Positions 2,051 through 42,526 of a stretch of 64,000 nt of DNA are shown in pieces (position 1 is the first letter of the stretch; each line of letters starts with the position of its first letter). The position numbers and the translations under genes are program-made. The DNA comes from Schmidtea polychroa (taxonomy: Eukaryota): NCBI GenBank assembly GCA_044892525.1, contig CM097885.1, positions 34,908,001-34,972,000 on the forward strand, in the 5' to 3' direction. Below the pieces are notes generated by a model, which saw only the letters and a list, made by a program, of their open reading frames with translations, was not told where the DNA came from and ran no database searches.

Positions 2051-5000
2051 GGTTTACGATTTGAATTTTTATAGTTAGTTTAGAGTCTATTCAAATTTAA
2101 AATCCAAGTCTTGCTGATGCGCATGTCGAACACCTTTATGAATACTATCACTACTAAATCACTCATTTTTAAACAATCTTTACTTTACACTATTACTAGA
2201 AAATTTATTTAAGACATTTATAAATCTAGATTCGACAAACGTATAGGTAGAGTTGGTTCTTGATGATATTTAACCGTCTACATTAATTGTGAATTGTAGA
2301 GTTGTGATTAATTTAGGTCTGAGATCTACTCTGTTTATTAACCTTAGTGTATTGTATTGTGATGATTTTGGATGTAGATTTTAACTATGTAAATTATTCA
2401 TGCATTGAAAGTCGGGAAGAGTGTTTGCTTTCACGGCCCCACTGTGACCACTACGACAAACCTTACTGTTGTGTGGAGTCGAAACATCGCTGTCGACCGA
2501 TAAATAAATATATGGAGCCATAGCGGAGGGGTTTTATCGACACAACTCCATGGTAGAACCATGAAGTGGCCGACCTCCGATGACCGAACAAAAGGAAACC
2601 AATAATATTGATAAGTGCGTGCCAGGCAGTGGCCTGCAATCATTGTGAACTGTGTACTCATCGATGATAAAGTGCATAGGTGCAGGGTTGGCTGGGATCT
2701 CGCTTCAAAATCAATGATAACCGACGATCTCACTCAAACCTACATTTCTATAGTTAAAAAGAAATAATGAAAACAAGGTTTCAATAATAATAACTTATAA
2801 TTCACAATGAAATCGTTCTTACCTACAATCTCAGAAAAATCAAAACCAAAAATTTGGCATAAGAGTAAAAATATTCATTTGCATTTTTTTCCTTTCTTGC
2901 TTAAAAAGTGACGAAATGTGTTAGTTTATATAGCCTCTGTTTGACGTGTAAGTATACATGCGTGCATTGATGCAGTAAAACAAATTCAGATTATTTTAAT
3001 TCTCGAACATTCGATTTTTAATTTTTATCGATTTTGATGGCGATTTTTCAGTAAGAATTTTTGTTTTTATTTTCGAAATTTTATTTTCGAATTATTTTTT
3101 ATTAAATTTGCCTCCATGATGGATTTCAGCATTTCCAGAAAAGTCCATTCTAAATTCAATCTATTTCTTATTTTTAAATTGTTTTTTATGATTTCTTTTC
3201 TAAAATATTTATTTTTTAAACTAAAATATTTATTTTTTATAAATTTTATTGGGTCGTTTGGCCGTCATGATGGATTTCGCCATTTTTATGAATTGTTCTG
3301 GATTTTTATTCAAAATATCGATATAATTTTCTTTACGTAAGATTTTATGAAGATTTTCTTTAATTTTCTTTTTTAATTTTTACAATCGCCTTTATTCGAA
3401 TTTGTTTTTTGTTGTTTTTTATCTCTTTCGGTTATATTTGAGTAAGTTTTCGTGTAATACTTCTTGCTCGTGTTTTATTTTATTTTTAATTCAGATGTTT
3501 TATTTTTGGGTATATTATCTCTCTATTATCATTGTTTACTTGGTGTTTTATATATTTTTATTTAAGTAAACTTAATGCTGGGTATGCGTGTTGTGTACTG
3601 ACACATTTCGTCCCATTTCCAACTTTGGGTCTAGAAATCAGTTCTAGCCCAACAAATGCAACCAATTCTGTCTAATTATATCTTGAACTTTTGATTAAAT
3701 TGGGGTCGCAATTTTATGGGCCCCTGAGTGTTTTATGTTGGGCTAGAATGGGATGGGATGTCAGTACACAACACGCATACCCAGCATTAAGTTTACTTAA
3801 ATAAAAATATATAAAACACCAAGTAAACAATGATAATAGAGAGATAATATACCCAAAAATAAAACATCTGAATTAAAAATAAAATAAAACACGAGCAAGA
3901 AGTATTACACGAAAACTTACTCAAATATTACCGAAAGACATAAAACAACAAAAAACAAATTCGAATAAAGGCGATTAGTAAAAATAAAAAAAGAAAATTA
4001 AAGAACATCTTCATAAAATCTTAGGTAAAGAAAATTATATCGATATTTTGAATAAAAATCCAGAACAATTCATAAAAATGGCGAAATCCATCATGACCGC
4101 CAAACGACCCAATAAAATTTATAAAAAATAAATATTTTAGTTTAAAAAATAAATATTTTAGAAATCATAAAAAACAATTTAAAAATAAGAAATAGATTAA
4201 ATTTAGCATGGAATGTTCTGGAAATGCTGAAATCCATCATGGAGGCAAATTTAATAAACAATAATTCAAAAACAAAATTCCAAAAATAAAAACAAAAATT
4301 GTTACGGAAAAATCGCCATCAAAATCGATAAAAATTAAAAATCGAATGTTCGAGAATTAAAATAATCTGAATTTGTTTTACTGAATCAATGCACGCATGT
4401 ATACTTACACGTCAAACAGAGGCTATATAAACTAACACATTTCGTCACTTTTTAAGGAAAAAATGCTAATGTTTACTCTTATGCCAAATTTTTGGTTTTG
4501 ATTTTTCTGAGATTGTAAGTAAGGACGATTTCATTGTGAATTATAAATTATTATTATTGAAACCTTGTTTTCATTAGTTCTATTTAACTATAGAGGTGTA
4601 GGTTTGAGTGAGATCGTCGGTCATCAATAATTTTGAAGCGAGATCCCAGCCAACCCTGCACTTACACACTTTATCATTTATGAATGCACAGTTCATAATG
4701 ATTTCGGGTCCTCGACCCTACATGCATTAAAATGATTTCAACTGCCAGAAGTCGCCACGAACAAATGGTGTTTAACCAGGAGTTGGGCTTATAAATCCTT
4801 CTTGGTAGTCGGCATAGTCACGGGACTATGCGGACGAAATAATTATTGGAAACTAATTGTGGATACATATTACAATAGGGCCTATCCTATCGTACTCAGT
4901 GTAGTAGGGAAAGTAGGTAAATTTTAATTAAATTGACCTTTTCGTTAACCTACATATCTGAAATAACACTTAAATTATACTATTTTGCACACAACATTAG

Positions 5001-16074: not shown

Positions 16075-19000
16075 TTATTTGAGGCAATCGCTATAACGCT
16101 TTTTGTATTCTGGTGTGATTGTTGTGTTGTTGTCGAAAATTTTTGTTGAGTTTTTTTCGCTGAATCTGATGTGTTTCTGGTTTGTCTGTATTTCTGTTCG
16201 TTCTTGTGTTTTGTACTTTGGGTGGTTGTTTTGAGGGTTTAGGTTGTGGTGATTGTTAAGAGTTGGTGTTTTGTTTTCGTGATATGGTTTTAATCGGCGT
16301 ATGTTTATTTTGATTTGTTTATTGTCTTTTAAAATTGTGCCAACGTTTTTATACATATTTAACAGTTTGTATGGGGCTTCGTACTTTGTTTCAAATCCGC
16401 TAGTGAAGGGTCTCTTTACTAAAACCATGTCTATTATTAGTTCTGTTTGGTTTTGGGTTTTATTATTATTTTTGTTTTTTAGAATACTTTTTAGTATGGG
16501 TATTTGTGATTCTTTAGCGGTTGTTTTAATCTTGTTTTCGTTTTCGTCCTTTAAGTTTGGTAGGTTGGTATTGTGTCCAAAAACTGATTGGCTAGGGCTT
16601 TTATTGTTTAGGCTTGAAGGGTTGTTTCGTAATCCTATTAGTATTTCTGGTAATTTTTCTAACCAGTTGTTGTTATTATTTGTTTTTGTTCTGATTGCTT
16701 GTTTTAATGATCGGTGTAATCTCTCAACTTTTCCGTTTGATTGTGGATTGTATGCTGTTGTTCTGGTTTTGTTGATGTTATATTTGTTGCAAAGTCCTTT
16801 GAAAATGTCGGATTCAAATTGCCTACCCTGATCGCTGATTATTGTCTTTGGGCAGCCATACCGGGTGAACCAGTTTAATTCTAATTTACTGCATATTTTT
16901 GCTGCTGATATTTCCTTTATGGGAATGGCTTCGAACCAATTTGTTTTTCGGTCTATTATAGTTAATAAGTACTTGTGTTTATTATTTGGAGGTAGAGGGC
17001 CGACTATGTCGATATGTATCGTTTCGAACGGTTCCGAACTTGGGAATTGTACAATTGTTGTTTTGAATTGTTTTGTTGTTATTTTATTCTTTTGATACTG
17101 TGGGCAATTTTTTACGAACGTTTTTACGTCCCTTCTCATGAAAGGTCAAACAACTTTGGTATGCAGAAGTTCGTATGTGGCTTTGTTTCCCGGATGGTAG
17201 ATGTTGTGATATTTTTGGAGGTATTGATCGCGCAGTTCTGCTGGTACTACGATCCTTTTGTTATTGTCATTTGAAGTGTCGTACCATATGCCGTCTATTT
17301 CTTCCAGGTGGAGTGAATTCATCCTTGGAGTTTCGATTGTTGTTTCTTTTTGTTTAGTTTTTAACTTTTCTAACTCTATGATGGGTGTTATGTTAAGTGC
17401 ATTTATGTCAGTTTCTATTCTTGATAATGCATCTGCACTTATGTTAGCTGAACCTGCTATGTATTTTATTTTGCAATTAAATTGTGAAATATAGTTTAAT
17501 TGTCTTATTTGTCTCGGTGAAGGGTTTTTCATGTTCATTGCGTTTATTAAGGGTTTATGGTCGGTATACACTTCGAAATCTTTTCCTTCCAATAGGTATT
17601 GGAAATGTCTGATTGTATCATGTAACGCTAATAACTCCCTGTCAAAAGTAGAGTATCTCATTTGGTGGGTTTTGAGTTTCTTTGAGAAGAAAGCTATTGG
17701 TCTTTTTTCGTTATTTTCTTCTTGGAATATCGTTCCGCCCATTGCTACTCCCGAACAATCTGTGTTGACTATGTATGGTAATTCTTGGTTGGGATAGTTT
17801 AGGATGCTTGCATTTTTCAGATTTTCTTTTGCCTGTTCGAACGCTGTTATTAGTTTTTCGTTCCAATTTATTTTGTTGTTTCTCTTTATTTTGTTCAGTT
17901 CATTGAGAGGGGCTAGCATTTCACTACATCTTGGTATGTATTTGTGATAGAAATTGATCATGCCAAGGAAACGTCTTAGCTCTTTTGTAGTTTTGGGTAG
18001 AGGGTAATTTTTGATCGCTTTGATTTTGTCGTCTAAAGGTCTTGTTCCATTTTCGTTTAACATGTGTCCCAGGAATTTTATTTCTGTTTTCAAAAATTCA
18101 CATTTTTTTATGTTAATTTTTAGCTCATGTTTGCTTAATATATCGAACACATTTTTAATATTTTGTATATGTTCTGTTTTGTTTGCTGATGCTATCAGGA
18201 TGTCGTCAAGGTATACGACTGTGTTCTGTTGATTTCGTAATATTTGCTCCATGAAGCGTTGGAAAGTGGCTGCAGCATTTTTTAATCCGAAAGGCATTTT
18301 GTTATACTCGAACAGTCCTATGGGTGTGATGATTGCTGTTTTCTTTATGTCTTCAGTTCTGACAGGAATTTGATGATAGGCTTTTTCTAAATCTATTTTG
18401 CTGAAAATTTTAGGTTTGTTAAATCTGTTGATGATATCGTTTATTATTGGGATTGGGTATTTGTCTGCTGTTGTGATATTGTTTAATGCTCTGTAGTCTC
18501 CACAGGCTCGCCATTCGCCGTTTGCCTTTTCTTTAAGCATGAGGGCTGATGACCAGTTTGAGTTTGAGTGTTTGACGATTTGGTTTTCTAGTAGTTCGTC
18601 GAATATTTTCTTAGTTATTTCGAGTTTATTTTTGTCTAACTGTCTGACTTTTGCATGGACTGGGTTTCCGTTGCTAATTATTATGTGTTCGGTTATGCAT
18701 TTTGTGTTGTTGTTTGTCTCTAATTTATTAGTTATATTTGCTGCATTTCGTATCAGTTTTGCGATTTCGTTAGGTATGTGCCAGTTTGTTTCTGTTTTAT
18801 TTGTTTTTGCTTCACCTATTTGGGCTGTTATTACTCCGATGTCACAATTGATTTGTTTTTTAGACTGTTTATTTTTGTGGTGTATGTTATTTGAATTGTT
18901 TGGTATGACTTTTCCATTCTTACAATCGACTAGTAGATTGAAGTTTGAAAGGAAATCTGCTCCTAAAATAGCTTGTTTGACTTCAGCTATAGTGAATTGC

Positions 19001-19278
19001 CAATTGTATTGAGTGTTGTTGATGGTGATGTTAATGTTTTGCTTTCCGAACGTTTTAATTGGGCTGCCGTTTGCTGCGCACAAATTTGCGGTTTCGGTTT
19101 TTGTGTTTTTGTATAGGTAATTCGGTAATAATGAAATTATTGAACCTGAATCAACAAGAAAATTTAGGCCATTGCTATGCACCGTGAAAGTTTGGCTGTC
19201 ACCTAATGTCGGTGCTATCATTGGTGACTTTATATGTTTCCCGACTCTTCTTTGTCGAAGGTGCAGGGTTTGTTGCAT
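16075..19278 (-). pseudogene. pol: pol (protease-RT-RNase H-integrase) with one in-frame TGA
   Basis: Motifs FLVDSGS (PR), YLDDILI (RT), TDCSG/DRELLA (RH), HxxxH..CxxY, IHIDIVGPL/SDQG/VERLH (IN). ORFs 17146-19278 and 16075-17139 are in the same frame, separated by TGA where W is expected (VV*PFMRRDV). Confidence 0.93.
19195..19242 (-). promoter_or_regulatory. Programmed -1 ribosomal frameshift signal (gag to pol)
   Basis: Slippery heptamer G GGA AAC at 19236-19242 in the gag frame; a -1 shift enters the pol frame (..GKHIKSPM). About 7 nt downstream is the stem-loop GTCACCAATG...CATTAGGTGAC. Confidence 0.8.
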
Positions 19279-20308
19279 TTGTATGCTTTATTCCCAAATT
19301 TATTGTGGTAGTAACAATAGTTTTGGGGTTGTTCCCTGTTTTGTTTCTGTCGAAGCTGTTGTGGCTGCCAGATCGTGTATTTTGTCTGGGATAATTTTGT
19401 CTGTTTTCGTAATATTGCGTTCTCCTGGATTCTCTTCTTTGTAATTCGGTTATGCCCTTTCTTAGATTTTTGTTTTCAATAATTATTTCGTCGAATTTTG
19501 TTACCAGAGTTGAGAGGAGTTTGTTCGTTTCTGTAGTTTCTGAGCTATTGTGTACAGGTTTGTTTTCGTTGCTCTTAAAATAATTTTTGTTTTGGTAAGT
19601 TCTACATATTGTTGGGTATATTTCGTCGTTGATTTTGTCTGCTATGTTTTCCAGAGTATCGAGGTCTGTACAGTTGCTGGCAGCTAGAATCCGTCGTATT
19701 TCAGGTGGCATTGCGCGCATGAAAAGGTCTTTAATGAACTCTTTTGACCCGGTGCTTGTTATTTTTGGTTGTAGTTATTCGAGTTTTGCCTTTAGGTTTC
19801 GCAGAAATTCAGACGGGTTGTCGTTACCCAATTGGATATCTTTCAAACAGGATTCGAGTAGTTCTCGCCTGTTTACTTTGTTCCGATTTATTAAAGTGTT
19901 GTATAGGTTTTCGAAAGGGTTGTCGTCCTTTGATATTTTCTCTACTCTATCGGCTATCTCGTTCAGGATGTTGCTGGGAAGGGCAGCGATTATGTGAGAA
20001 CAAACTGTTCTTGATGATTTAATGCCTGATAGGCTTAATGTTAATTTGGCGAATTCTAGCCATTTTTGTGGTGTCCCATTTTCGTCTGTGAAAAAATTTG
20101 GGATATTTGCCTTGGGGTTTAGTATTGAGTTTACCGCGGATGAATTTTCGGGGTTGTAATAATAACTACTGCTTTCATGTGTTGTGTGTGTGTTTGCGTT
20201 GTTGGTGCTTGGGTTGTATTGGTTGTTCATGTTTTCCGGTGAGTGAGCATTTTCATAGTTGTTGGGTATCTTTGTATTGTTTGTCGGGTTTTGCTGGTTT
20301 GAAGCCAT
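19230..20308 (-). pseudogene. gag: gag with one in-frame TAA and a 1-bp frameshift before the CYYHNKFGNKAYKCNKPC knuckle
   Basis: ORFs 19775-20308 and 19199-19720 are in one frame across a single TAA. The Cys/His knuckle, followed by ...ESGNI*, lies in another frame from about 19320. Confidence 0.85.
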
Positions 20309-23203: not shown

Positions 23204-23803
23204 ATAATTAATAAACAAAAAATAATACCGAGGTTCTCCGAAATTAAGAAAGCCACTGAAATGACGAATAAACATTTGAAGAAGTGGATTGCAAACAATG
23301 GCGGATGGGAAAATTTGATACAAAAGAAAGAGTGCCCAAAAACAGAGACAGTAAGGAAAAAGAGAAAACTCGCATTTCCATGGTTGATGATCTCTATTAT
23401 CATGTTATTGGGAATAATAAACACGACGAATTCATTGGTGGAATACGACTGCTCCCAAACCGAAATGGGAAGAGTATATTCGTTGGTAAACGTAGCAGAG
23501 TGTTCAGATGCATACCCAGTAAAATTTAAAGTGACAAATCCAGTAAAATATCATGTATATCAAGAATCGGGGTTTCGACGGTCAAAGGTGAGAGAGTGTT
23601 CAGTGAAACGAACTACTTTTGTATTTTATTGTGAAAATGGAGCCACTCATCGATGGTGAGAATGCAATTGATACCTAGACCGATTGAAATAATTCCAGAG
23701 AATTGCCTGGCAGCCTTTCAAACGGGACAGCTGAAAATCAATGCAGATATTAAACTGCAAGCAAAGCTTAACCATAAAATCCTTGAGACTGTAACCGTGC
23801 GAG
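23204..23803 (+). pseudogene. Fragment: Bcl-2 BH2-like motif, hydrophobic segment and N-terminus of a chuvirus-like envelope glycoprotein
   Basis: HLKKWIANNGGWENL matches BH2 (compare Bcl-2 HLHTWIQDNGGWDAF). It is followed by FPWLMISIIMLLGII and then YDC..YSLVNVAEC..YQES..VRECSVKRTTFVFYC..ENCLAAFQTGQL, the Cys spacing I associate with chuvirus-type glycoproteins. Frameshift at about 23650. Confidence 0.7.
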
Positions 23804-25850
23804 GGTTACAAACTAATCCAGATAACATCAAAAAGTGGAAGAGTACCCAGTACTAAAAGATGCCGATGAGGTCAGACAATTTTTAGGTTTGGCTAGCTAT
23901 TACAGGAAATTTATAAAAGATTTCTCTCATATCGCTTAACCATTGAATACGTTACTAAAGAAAAACAATAAATTTATTTGGGGACAAATGCAACAAAGCG
24001 CTTTCAATACATTAAAAGAAAAATTAGTGACAACTCCTATATTACGATGTCCAGATTTTACGAAACAATTTATCTTGATGACGGATGCAAGCAATGTTGC
24101 ATTGGGCGCGGTGTTGAGCCAAAAATTTGAAGGTGAAAAGGACCACTTAATAGCATACGCAAGCAGATCACTGAGATCTCATGAGAAAAACTACTTAACT
24201 ATTGAAAATGAAACGTTAGTGTTAGTGTATAGAATTGCTACTTTTAGACAATACTTACTGGACCGAAAATTTACTGTTTATACGGATCATAATGCATTAC
24301 AGTGGTTAATGAAACACAGAGATTCAGCCAGTAAGTTAATACGATGGTCGATTGCCCTCCAAGAATACGATTTTGAGATTAAATATCGGACAGGTAAAGC
24401 TAACGCGAATGCAGATGCAATGTCAAGAATCCCAGAAAATGATAGTGAAGGAACACGAGAAAAATTGGAAGGCACTATATTTGCTGCAATCAAAACTGTT
24501 AATGATATGTCTGAACTACAAAATGATCAGGAAAACGATAGTGAATTAAAACAATTTATGGAACAAGCGGTCAAAATAAGAAAGGAACAAGATTGGAAAC
24601 GACTCACAGATGCAAACAGCAAATATGTAGTTCATAATGGAATACTTAAAATTTGGAAAAATATCGAACCATTAATTATTATCCCAGCCAAGCACAGAGA
24701 CGCATTACTGATGCAGTATCATGATGGAGCTTTGGGAGGTCATTTGTCAACGCGCAAGACGCTATCAAGATTAAAACTGAAATACTTTTGGCCAACAATG
24801 GAACAAGACGTGAAAAATTGGTGTAACAGTTGTAAAGTATGCATCACTCGCAGAAATACTGGTAAAACGATTAAAGTACCATTAAAACCGATGCCAGTAC
24901 CTGCAGCACCGATGGAGATGACGGCAATGAATATTCTGGGACCATTACCGGAAACAACAAAAGGAAACAAATACATTGTTGTTTTTTGTGACCATTTTAC
25001 TAAATGACCGGAAGCATACGCTATTCCAAACCAAAAAGCTGACACGATTGCTAGAATATTTGTGGAAAACATAATATTTTGCTATGGTACTCCAAAGAAA
25101 TTGCTAACTGATCAAGGGAGGAACTTTCAAAGCGAAATGTTCAAATCAATCATATACCTATTTGGGATTTGGAAAGTAATTAATTGGGATTTGGAAATAC
25201 AAACTGATGGATTAGTGGAACGATATAATGGGACACTGATAAAAATGATCTCATCATATGTGAATCGAAAACAGAAAGATTGGGACGACTTCATTAAGCC
25301 GTGCTATTTGCCTACAGAAATGCAGTAAATCAAAGTACAGGTGAGACCCCTTTTTATTTGATGTATTTAAGGAAAAATAATATGCCAATTGATCTCAAAT
25401 TCCAACCACCAATTTCACAATATATGGAGATACCCGATTATAAAGCATTGATGCAAGAAAGAATGCAATCAGTATGGACTAAAGCCGGTTTGACAATAAA
25501 GCACAACCAAGAGAAATATAAAGAAGCCTACAATAAAAAAGTACATGCGCATGGCATAAAGATCGGAGATCTAGTATATCTTAACAGACCGGAACCTCTC
25601 AAAGGTCTATCGCCTAAATTACAAAGACCATTTAAAGGACCATACAAAGTGTGCGACACCACCGAAACCAATTTGAAATTGTTACCATTCAGGAGTAAAA
25701 AGGCTAACCAAATGATTGTGCATGCAAATCGATGTAAACTAGTGCCAGAGGAAGATGAATCTAGATACCCCTTAAGATCCAAGCGGAATAAAGTAACAGG
25801 TCAAACAAAAGTGAAACAGAAATTCACGAAAAATCCAACACAAGTCAGCT
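23804..25850 (+). pseudogene. pol: Ty3/gypsy pol, C-terminal part (RT connection, RNase H, integrase, GPY/F), disrupted
   Basis: GLQTNPD..VRQFLGLASYYRKF; TDASNVALGAVL (RH); H..GH..CxxC zinc finger; LLTDQGRNF; GLVERYN; FKGPYKV. Several stops and frameshifts. Confidence 0.93.
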
Positions 25851-26997
25851 ACATCAATAAGATATTATATGTAACAACAATGCTGATGTTAATAACAATT
25901 ACGAGCGGCAAAAGGATTGACTTGCCATATGCAGTAAACAAAATCCAGGGAATGGAGAAAATACATATGTATTCCACTCTAACAAATATTGTGTGGAGCT
26001 GTAAATGCGAGATCGCAAACCAAATAGAAATTATTAATTTACTAGACAATACGACACCAGTGGTAGAACTGAATTATGATAAAGATGTATTTGCGGCACG
26101 AAAGTTAAAGCGAAATTTCAAATACCAATGGCTGTTGAGACAGAACATGTCAAAGTGGTACACGCAAATTCCGATAGAAGTGCACACAAAAAAGATGCAA
26201 AACCTGATTGAAATAGAACCAGGGATAAATGTAATCAATATATATTGGAAGCCAGTGGACTTGGGGAAAGTGCGAATCACATTTCAAGGGTTAAGTGTCG
26301 ACACCCTTAACTCGCGAAAATCATTTGTCCAATATGAGAAATTGAGAATGAATCAAAATTATTCAATTAACGCAAACTACTACGAGAACATATGCCTCGA
26401 AAATGGAACGGTAATGAGAAACCAATGGTCACGGTTTAAGAGTGAGACCCAGTCTATCTATCTCAGAGACGAGCCAAATCGTATAACCCTGAGTGTTGGA
26501 AATGGACCGGTAACAATGTATAGAAAATCAGGAAATGATGAAAGAGTTGTTACAAAGAACACTACAAACAAAAGAACTACAAACAAAGAACCTTGACTAT
26601 ATTAGATGCCTATAATCATTTTTTTACACTTTACACTTCTGATTTAGAGACGGTATGGGAAATAACAGTTAAATATCAGCGATGGATAACCGAACCAGGC
26701 AGATGGCAAACCGTTTTCGGGGAAGTCAAGGCGATCAATGAATCGAAACGAACGTCATATACAACCACATCACCTTTCCAATTACCAACCCAAAGGACGA
26801 CAAAACCTAACACAAATAAACTAATGATGACAAATTCGGATTTGACAGTCAACTATTGTGAATATCTCATTTACATTTTAATAACAGGTTTTTTCATCTT
26901 GTCAGTAACATTCATAACCATCACTATCTTGATATGTGTGAAAGAGAGACAACTAACTATCCTTCAACCAACATCATATTCATATTACGAAACATGA
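25850..26997 (+). pseudogene. Type-I membrane (env-position) protein fused in frame to the integrase C-terminus, with a single 1-bp frameshift
   Basis: Signal-like ILYVTTMLMLITITSG, an ectodomain with N-x-S/T sites, a Thr-rich stalk and a TM segment YLIYILITGFFILSVTFITITILICV. The frames are joined by restoring one A in the tandem ACTACAAACAAA(A)GA at about 26585. Confidence 0.65.
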
Positions 26998-27184
26998 CTA
27001 TAAATTGTGATCTGCATGCTATAAATAATGTATAAATATATATTGAATTATATCGACAATGTGCATGTTTTATAAGTATCATAGGATGAGCTGTGCGATT
27101 TGTTTGATATGATTCAAGGCAAGGTGTTGATGCTTTGCGAATAAAGATTAATACATAAAACTGATTATCATTTAATTTCAGAAA

Positions 27185-27433
27185 ATGCAAGAAGCCTCGG
27201 AAATGTCGTGCAAAGAGTGCAAAACGAATACACAAGAATTAAAGCGGAAGTTTCGAAGTATGCAGGGTAGGATAACGGATTTGGAGGAAGAAAACTTCCA
27301 TCTGAAAAAGCGGTTGGATCGTATTGAGATCTTACTATTTCAGCATGAAGCGGATTTTATGATGTTTTGGATGAAGGTAGAAGAAATGTCGGAGGAATCG
27401 GAGGATGAGAGTGAACTCAATCAATTGGATTAA
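27185..27433 (+). CDS. Small accessory ORF, 82 aa: CxxC, coiled coil and acidic tail
   Basis: Intact ATG..TAA; heptad pattern ITDLEEENFHLKKRLDRIEILL; GC-richer than its flanks. Confidence 0.6.
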   Translation: MQEASEMSCKECKTNTQELKRKFRSMQGRITDLEEENFHLKKRLDRIEILLFQHEADFMMFWMKVEEMSEESEDESELNQLD

Positions 27434-41429: not shown

Positions 41430-42526
41430 TAGGCAGCAAAACGTAAATTTCGAGGACGAAAAAAAATTTTTAAGGGGGAGATATGTTGAGGTCCGTAAAT
41501 TAAAATTAATTTAAATGAAATTTAGGTTAATAATTTAAATAAAATGTAAGTGAAGAAAAAAGACAAATAAAAGCGGGATCATGCACAGAATCGATAGTAA
41601 AGGAAAGTGTGATGGAAGTAGTATTAGAAAATGCCAAAAGCAATTAAGAAAGGCAAGAATCCGGAAATCCGAGAAAAATCAATAAATTAAAGAATTATCG
41701 AAATCGAATGGAGAAAACGAGACAGGTATAGAGTAGCTAATGGTCAACAAGATGATGGTTAGGGGTTTATCAGAAAATGGTTAGGAAGGGTCGAAAAGCA
41801 TTCAAATGTGTAAAACCAGAAAACGTTAATTAATTAATTAATTGGCTAATAGAAAACCCGAGCCAATGGAGAACCCGAGAGATGAAGGAAACCCGAGCTG
41901 GGTAAACAAGAAGAAAAGCAAACAGAAGGATGATTTGGACCCATTAGCTTGACACAATGATTAATTGGAAAAGAGCAAGGAGAAGATAGTGCGTGTAGGA
42001 AGGCCGGAAGGGCCAATTATTATCTTGGTTCGTTGGACCATTATGGGTGACAGCCGAAGCAAATACGTGGAAGCAAATGTCAAGTGAAAGATTGGCTCGG
42101 CAATAACCATTTGTCATCCCGATTTCGAGGAGTATATAAGGAAAGGGAAAATCAGAGAAAATCGGCATTTTGCCTCAGGTAGGGTAAGAAGAAACCGAGC
42201 TTATGAAAAGGCGAAAACGAATTTAGGAGATTAGGGAAAAAGAAGAGATAGAATAAGAATAAAAAGCGTGAAAAGGATCAAATCAAACAGAAAAGAGGAA
42301 AATGTTGGTCAAGAGAACCTAAGAGAATAAAAGGTGAATATTATCTTTTGTCAAAGCATCAACACCGAGCGGAGAATCGGTCAAACGTAACTTTGATTAT
42401 TAATTGTAAAGTGGTGAGAGAACATTGTGAATTTGTTATTTCAATATACGTTGGGTCGTTATTGTTTTTATTTAAAGGACACGAGAAGTCAGAGGGAACC
42501 GACTTAAATTAACGAAAAACCCAACA
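41430..42526 (+). mobile_element. Gypsy 3' LTR (41484-42526) with PPT and about 55 bp of internal remnant
   Basis: TTTCGAGGACGAAA..TTTTAAGGGGGAGATA then TGTTGAGG...CCCAACA. Shares AATTAATTGGCTAATRGAAAACCCGAGC and TTTTGCCTCAG blocks with the LTR at 45199. Confidence 0.8.

Follow-up and report, generated by a model that had tools for sequence, protein, structure and literature searches.

At one locus of the Schmidtea polychroa genome, a single retroelement frame places a motif resembling the BH2 of Bcl-2 proteins directly ahead of a viral-type fusion glycoprotein, which raises the questions of what kind of element encodes this combination and where the hydrophobic segment between the two parts comes from. 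In the window, i.e. the whole analysed stretch of 64,000 nucleotides, the frame starting at 23204 reads as initially annotated: the motif WIANNGGW is followed by a basic linker ending in RKKRK, a hydrophobic run at 23369-23419 and NSLVEYDC. In all six frames of the window, the pattern W[IVL]xxxGGW was found a single time, compared to 0.003 occurrences expected from composition. Pfam assigned residues 18-35 of the frame to Bcl-2 (E 0.082) and residues 62-143 to PF24664 (Monjiviricetes_fusion, E 2.9e-8), so that the similarity of the cysteine-rich part to a viral glycoprotein profile holds true. While further cysteines were found as described, at residues 100, 132 and 143, their spacing amounts to tens of residues and is not close.

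The homology of the window copy to other copies begins at 23243, about 55 bases past the end of a TA microsatellite, with 92% nucleotide identity, and the 5' sequence of the family, comprising Gag, most of the Bcl-2 domain and the 5' LTR, is absent from window positions 1-23243. The reading frame is shifted near 23633 and meets a stop at 23659, further glycoprotein is encoded in a different frame at 23635-23805, and from there the copy skips to the end of the reverse transcriptase (RT). The window copy is a decayed remnant that has lost its 5' end and 3.3 kb of internal sequence and contains frameshifts, including one near 26552 in the second membrane protein (Table 1). The LTR listed last is assigned as a 3' LTR, since a purine tract precedes it and no primer site follows; it likely belongs to the same copy, with about 12 kb of other repeats in between. 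An ordinary separate gypsy element (DUF7041 Gag, protease, RT, RNase H, integrase) lies just upstream on the opposite strand (window 16075-20308 (-)).

Table 1. Features of the retroelement copy in the window
Position	Strand	Feature	Remark
23243-23317	+	C-terminal remnant of the Bcl-2-like domain (end of helix 6 and BH2 motif WIANNGGW, 23285-23308)	remainder deleted
23318-23368	+	linker with a basic cluster at its end	cytosolic side of membrane segment 1 (predicted)
23369-23434	+	hydrophobic segment and polar c-region, putative internal signal peptide of the glycoprotein	cleavage predicted after T-N-S
23435-23805	+	N-terminal fifth of the Monjiviricetes-type fusion glycoprotein	frameshift near 23633
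23799-23805	+	junction where 3,300 internal bases are deleted (remaining glycoprotein, protease and most of RT)	7-base microhomology
23806-25750	+	end of RT, RNase H, integrase	stops and frameshifts
25859-25909	+	second putative internal signal peptide, after the integrase	in frame with the integrase; small -3/-1 residues
25910-26997	+	second membrane protein, predicted as type I, with a beta-rich, fibronectin-III-like ectodomain, an S/T stalk and an anchor	anchor at about 26863-26940
27176-27433	+	small coiled-coil-like ORF	found in a young copy too
41483-42526	+	LTR of the family, 85% identical to young copies	purine tract before, no primer site after

A search of the 781 Mb genome of the window gave 2,096 candidate matches, of which 150 were scored; apart from the window copy itself, these showed identities of 88-92%. 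Frames of at least 3,334 codons were listed for nine of the 150, and the intact copies anticipated in the initial annotation were recovered: each of the four copies that were read out comprises one frame of 3,334 codons (family A). The four copies have lengths of 15.1-17.8 kb and LTRs of 1.06 kb with TG...CA ends, 0, 3, 1 and 3 of about 1,058 bases are mismatched within their LTR pairs, and 4-base target duplications flank three of the copies. The family is abundant and recently active, with young copies. Within its frame, Gag (PF03732) and three CCHC knuckles are followed by a ubiquitin-like domain (E 3e-4), an acidic linker and a Bcl-2-like domain (approximately residues 878-1018), after which come the glycoprotein (PF24664, E 2.5e-94) and then protease, RT, RNase H and integrase. 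The LTR ends, the short target duplication, the order of the enzymes and the gypsy-type domains place the element in Ty3/gypsy. A primer-binding site is located 7 bases past the 5' LTR (L013:4603-4630), which we take to resemble the 3' end of tRNA-Trp; this site has 941 exact matches across the genome, some of which may stem from other families or from tRNA genes.

Three more families with the same domain order were found in the same genome, namely B (about 3,050 aa), C and D (3,346 aa). Families C and B have a second ORF past the polyprotein (L072:768-2225 (-) and L084:3156-5486 (+)), which by eye presumably resembles a DEDD exonuclease in its motif and which gave no DEDD exonuclease hit in Pfam at E 0.05; the corresponding region of family A contains small ORFs only. 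The stretch is covered by contigs of four sequencing runs, whose status as RNA is a guess. From two runs bearing a second organism label, single contigs bridge Gag, the Bcl-2-like domain and the glycoprotein without a gap at about 96.5% identity, which argues against an assembly artefact but carries no information on transcription or splicing.

The order of the domains as such is already published for planarian elements. According to the excerpts of PMC6431247 used here, Burro carries, in frame and placed between gag and pol, BCL2 followed by an Env that gave hits to fusion glycoproteins of mononegaviruses, and the suggestion of a Burro-like gypsy element with a Bcl-2-like domain is borne out in the present families. 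According to PMC8532177 (as excerpted), the RNA of Burro increases in animals with a knockdown of the piRNA pathway. By that description, to which the comparison refers instead of to the sequences of Burro-1 to -4, Burro (GYPSM1) shares with family A a huge ORF, a Gag with three CCHC knuckles, the ubiquitin-like, BCL2-like and Env domains and the order protease, RT, RNase H, integrase. The element described here is smaller, with 15-18 kb, 1.06-kb LTRs and about 3,320 aa, Burro exceeding 30 kb with 4,873 aa (ORFs of about 4,900-5,100 aa), and while Burro has BIR, ankyrin and MATH domains, the ORF of family A showed none of them in Pfam at E 0.1. Family A is a compact Burro-like variant without these three domains, for which the origin of the shared segment is corrected below. 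A giant ORF like that of Burro-1 was found neither via the BIR domain (150 of 309 candidates scored, all frames of at most 400 aa) nor via P0012 (24 of 25,605 scored), the latter yielding the fourth compact family instead. The Bcl-2/Env order merely confirms a known arrangement; the topology of the polyprotein is the part that would matter. In PMC6431247, neither 'signal peptide', 'fibronectin' nor 'topology' is mentioned, nor is a second membrane protein after the integrase.

In the unbroken copies, a complete glycoprotein directly follows a full-length Bcl-2-like domain in one frame, with one hydrophobic segment in between, as had been expected from the window copy. By sequence, the glycoprotein of family A is complete: the profile matches over the ectodomain, an N-terminal signal and a C-terminal anchor are present, none of the 14 cysteines that 43 stand-alone relatives have in common is missing, and both the anchor and the stretch behind it match stand-alone family members. 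Among variants common to at least three loci (32 synonymous, 10 replacement), a pN/pS of 0.08 was determined, which indicates purifying selection; of the 35 loci given, one identical to the reference was skipped and a few are duplicates of one another. The profile of the glycoprotein family gave herpes gB in 30 of 31 rows, all weak (best E 0.044), and weak Pfam hits to Borna G and gB were obtained for its relatives. The glycoprotein is thus likely a class III fusogen. Its description as chuvirus-like stands at the level of the class, Monjiviricetes, but not for Chuviridae specifically. In quick trees, 14 polyprotein glycoproteins form one branch apart from 19 comparison rows with a support of 100; the comparison set is mostly unnamed, and none of the ten entries looked up is named as a virus. 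A metagenome scan with the glycoprotein gave 131 pattern matches, none of which was confirmed.

Chuvirus glycoproteins have been described in Anakin BEL/Pao elements (PMC7642597, as excerpted), which are likewise LTR retrotransposons that acquired their env by capturing a glycoprotein of the same viral class. In our set, PF24664 matches a BEL/Pao-type protein as well (P0077), in which the glycoprotein follows the integrase-end domain DUF5641. In contrast to the BEL/Pao Pol of Anakin, the Pol found here is of the gypsy type, gave no DUF5641 hit and is preceded by the glycoprotein, which lies before the protease.

The hydrophobic segment had been proposed to be the tail anchor of the Bcl-2 protein doubling as the signal peptide of Env. 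We compared it across 16 polyproteins, namely families A-C and 13 out of 150 hits with long sequence ahead of the glycoprotein; fragments, chimeric predictions and BEL/Pao types were left out. In all 16, a hydrophobic segment lies 12-19 residues before the YDC motif, in the seven with a Bcl-2-like domain as well as in the nine without, two of which (P0004 and P0007) comprise just 150-165 upstream residues, which excludes an adjacent Bcl-2 domain but not a distant one. In stand-alone glycoproteins (n = 73), the segment constitutes the N-terminal signal peptide at a median of 15 residues before YDC. Small residues at -3/-1 occur in the same register in 14 of the 16 polyproteins and in 57 of the 73 stand-alone glycoproteins. 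The linker between BH2 and the segment, on the other hand, differs in length among lineages, and the distance varies from 45 to 79 residues. Since the register to YDC is fixed, including in polyproteins without Bcl-2, and the distance to BH2 is variable, the segment came with the glycoprotein, as whose own signal peptide we read it.

A captured Bcl-2 gene might alternatively have brought its own tail anchor, which was later co-opted as signal peptide of the glycoprotein. In family A, the segment indeed follows about 20 residues past BH2 with basic residues ahead of it, an arrangement shared by cellular Bcl-2 tails, which show a similar spacing between BH2 and the anchor. This account would leave unexplained the same register in the nine polyproteins without Bcl-2 and the 73 stand-alone glycoproteins as well as the variable distance to BH2. 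Furthermore, in quick trees the Bcl-2-bearing P0005 is sister to three elements that lack the domain and keep the segment (support 98-99). An origin from a Bcl-2 tail is largely refuted and very improbable. Nonetheless, a segment that is cut at its end would form the C-terminus of the Bcl-2 product and could also serve as its anchor; the initially proposed double role is therefore plausible in function and wrong in origin.

As for the Bcl-2-like domain itself, a profile built from families A-C only gave Bcl-2 or Bcl-xL in all of the best 60 of 110 PDB rows (E of at most 1), the best with an E of 9.7e-5 and spanning BH1 to BH2. With the same profile, the domain was also detected in 4 of 150 outside proteins (E of at most 0.002), and the Pfam values for Bcl-2 are 3.8e-3 (A), 2.2e-6 (B) and 1.1e-4 (C), all under the curated cut-off. 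Both a relationship to the Bcl-2 family and the BH2 motif are found. The helices upstream of BH2, whose absence from intact copies would speak against a Bcl-2 domain, are present, but the BH1 motif NWGR is degenerate, with the Gly lost in all eight Bcl-2-bearing lineages: its place reads DRDV, DKEV, NRDK, TDSK, TFTK, DQNR, SRNK or NKDV, and Val takes the place of the Arg in families A, C and D. The helix pattern fits Bcl-2, and the fold model is of low confidence (pLDDT 43). With this model, Foldseek returned rows nearly all of the Bcl-2 family at E 0.28 or worse, and VIA gave Bcl-2 chains with Z of at most 5.4, below an unrelated top row of 6.1; the match to A179L, at Z 5.4, has an rmsd of 4.5 over 111 residues. 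These structure searches thus gave no significant match, which does not exclude the fold. A predicted complex of the domain with a 37-residue peptide of a host BH3 region scored 0.01, which is evidence neither way, and a word-based homologue search, covering lengths of 2,983-5,000 only and hence weak evidence, found none for the Bcl-2 region.

Compared to the Bcl-2 proteins of DNA viruses (A179L, F1L, ORFV125) and Bcl-2-like genes of Polintons, the domain is likewise a Bcl-2-type domain of a mobile element with BH2 kept and a C-terminal hydrophobic segment. It differs in its position within a retroelement polyprotein, in the loss of the BH1 Gly and in an anchor that would be borrowed from the signal peptide of a glycoprotein. 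Since NWGR is lost and the constraint is weak, the designation as an apoptosis regulator is unproven. The domain is predicted to be a dispensable accessory, which, tentatively, may keep the producing cell alive via a non-canonical groove. Another explanation would be a helical membrane-proximal adaptor, either matrix-like or acting in immune signalling, or slowly decaying cargo, which is quite conceivable if a little short of probable. The Arg of NWGR is the hallmark contact with BH3 peptides (PMC7719400, as excerpted), and this motif is gone in 8 of 8 lineages; moreover, no Gly-Asp was seen by eye at the BH3 position of helix 2. The pN/pS of the domain is 0.36 compared to 0.33 in the adjoining acidic linker (small counts, variants common to at least three loci), i.e. 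no lower, which indicates that the domain is weakly constrained. Between families A and C, it shows an identity of 33%, while the glycoprotein shows 70%, and it is missing from 9 of 17 related polyproteins. Against a function other than in apoptosis, the helix pattern and BH2 are kept across lineages of 24-33% identity. In addition, vaccinia F1L blocks apoptosis without obvious BH domains (excerpts of PMC2836074), and Burro1 also has a BIR domain (excerpts of PMC6431247). A single clade of Bcl-2-bearing glycoproteins was mildly rejected (p-AU 0.025), a result compatible with a single gain followed by losses as well as with several gains.

Bcl-2-like genes occur in two unrelated classes of mobile elements in this genome. 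Multi-copy Bcl-2-like ORFs were found in Polinton/Maverick-like elements (L075:4778-5233 (-), L076, L064-L068, L077-L079), which also have an A32-type ATPase, an integrase and a TBP-like gene. Bcl-2 hits containing TAG were considered as read-through forms of the retroelement and rejected, since the copies examined sit in Polinton-like elements. The best fits to the retroelement Bcl-2 profile were L060:1348-1809 (+) with E 1e-7 and a Polinton ORF with E 2e-6, and the other scored ORFs reached E 7e-4 or worse, mostly over BH2. Judged from these sequences, the Bcl-2 of both classes may possibly originate from one donor lineage. A BIR-domain ORF of 392-393 codons is dispersed as well (e.g. G000 C1:193600677 and about 150 other places), which points to some other mobile element with an IAP-like gene.

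Past the integrase, the frame of family A continues with another signal-like segment, a beta-rich part of about 310 residues and finally an anchor, corresponding to window 25859-26997. A second signal and anchor in this place were found in all seven polyproteins that reach that far (6 of 6 and family D), while the second ectodomains of distant lineages do not align. For the ectodomain of family A, the middle domain was modelled with a pLDDT of 55-76. The top Foldseek rows are mostly FN3 arrays, with weak values (best E 3.2e-3), and VIA gave a weak match (Z 5.2, rmsd 2.6 over 72 residues). Pfam gave no hit, a PDB sequence search with its alignment gave none at E 10, and neither did a word-based homologue search, which covered lengths of 218-695 only and is weak evidence. 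The models thus weakly suggest a fibronectin-III-like surface protein, which likely serves as an attachment or decoy protein. We found no literature on the topology of Burro or on a membrane protein after its integrase, although Grohme 2018 with its supplements and Repbase may cover these families; the protein is apparently unreported.

Exactly four strong hydrophobic peaks are present in the polyprotein of family A, a weaker central Bcl-2 helix aside, and the same four in family D. Based on hydropathy, the -3/-1 pattern and homology, we consider it probable that this compact Burro-like gypsy element makes one polyprotein that is threaded through the ER membrane four times and cut twice by host signal peptidase. 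Segment 1, the signal peptide of the glycoprotein, would open translocation and be cut after T-N-S, and segment 2 would send the chain back to the cytosol, so that protease, RT and integrase remain there. Segment 3 would act as a second signal peptide and segment 4 would anchor the last protein, resulting in the course cytosol-lumen-cytosol-lumen-cytosol with Gag, Bcl-2 and the Pol enzymes in the cytosol and both ectodomains in the lumen. A weaker hydrophobic stretch past segment 2 (KD 1.38, up to 1.71 in a relative), which stand-alone glycoproteins have too, is assumed to be amphipathic.

Three products would result: Gag-Ubl-Bcl-2, held at the membrane by the left-over signal acting as tail anchor; the fusogen with Pol on its tail; and the fibronectin-III-like surface protein. 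The protease of the element would then trim the signal-peptidase products, and Pol would enter the budding particle via the envelope protein instead of as Gag-Pol. In flavivirus and alphavirus polyproteins, the capsid-side product in the cytosol also ends in the signal for the next glycoprotein and is separated by host signal peptidase. This is a likeness of working and not homology, and in contrast to these viruses, the enzymes here are of the retroviral type and lie between two glycoproteins. In retroviruses and errantiviruses, Env is made from a separate message and Pol is packaged as Gag-Pol. If the topology holds true, signal peptidase would part Gag from Pol and Pol would travel on the tail of the fusogen, a different solution to particle assembly.

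The initial annotation had envisaged an enveloped retroelement that co-translates Bcl-2 and a fusogen. One frame with both domains is observed, while cleavage, topology, particles, fusion and an effect on cell death are what we infer from it. The glycoprotein might instead be made without extracellular particles, the element spreading between neighbouring cells by cell-cell fusion or by budding into internal membranes. An output of Gag, Env and Pol at 1:1:1 is unusual among budding retroviruses and would favour such a spread, and no literature on Burro particles was found. However, the fusogen is strongly constrained and 7 of 7 polyproteins retain the second surface protein together with its own signal and anchor, both of which are at least equally compatible with an enveloped particle, and we regard spread without particles as unlikely. 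Returning to the enveloped particle, Burro-type elements could well represent a separate lineage of enveloped retroviruses of flavivirus-like organization, with an anchored Gag-Bcl-2, a class III fusogen-Pol and an FN3-like attachment protein, an idea we put forward with some reserve. If true, this would be a retroelement with separate proteins for fusion and attachment and without a Gag-Pol precursor. Since planarians are tractable by RNAi and proteomics, the cleavage sites, the particles and the role of Bcl-2 in stem-cell survival are directly testable.

Some of the related polyproteins show further peculiarities. P0004, P0006, P0007, P0010 and P0014 contain at least two tandem aspartic-protease domains after the glycoprotein, and P0004 seemingly has a further one past the integrase. 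P0009 (HBK71150.1), a whole polyprotein of this type, has been entered under a Flavobacteriaceae metagenome bin as a hypothetical protein, which is likely due to animal contamination of the bin.
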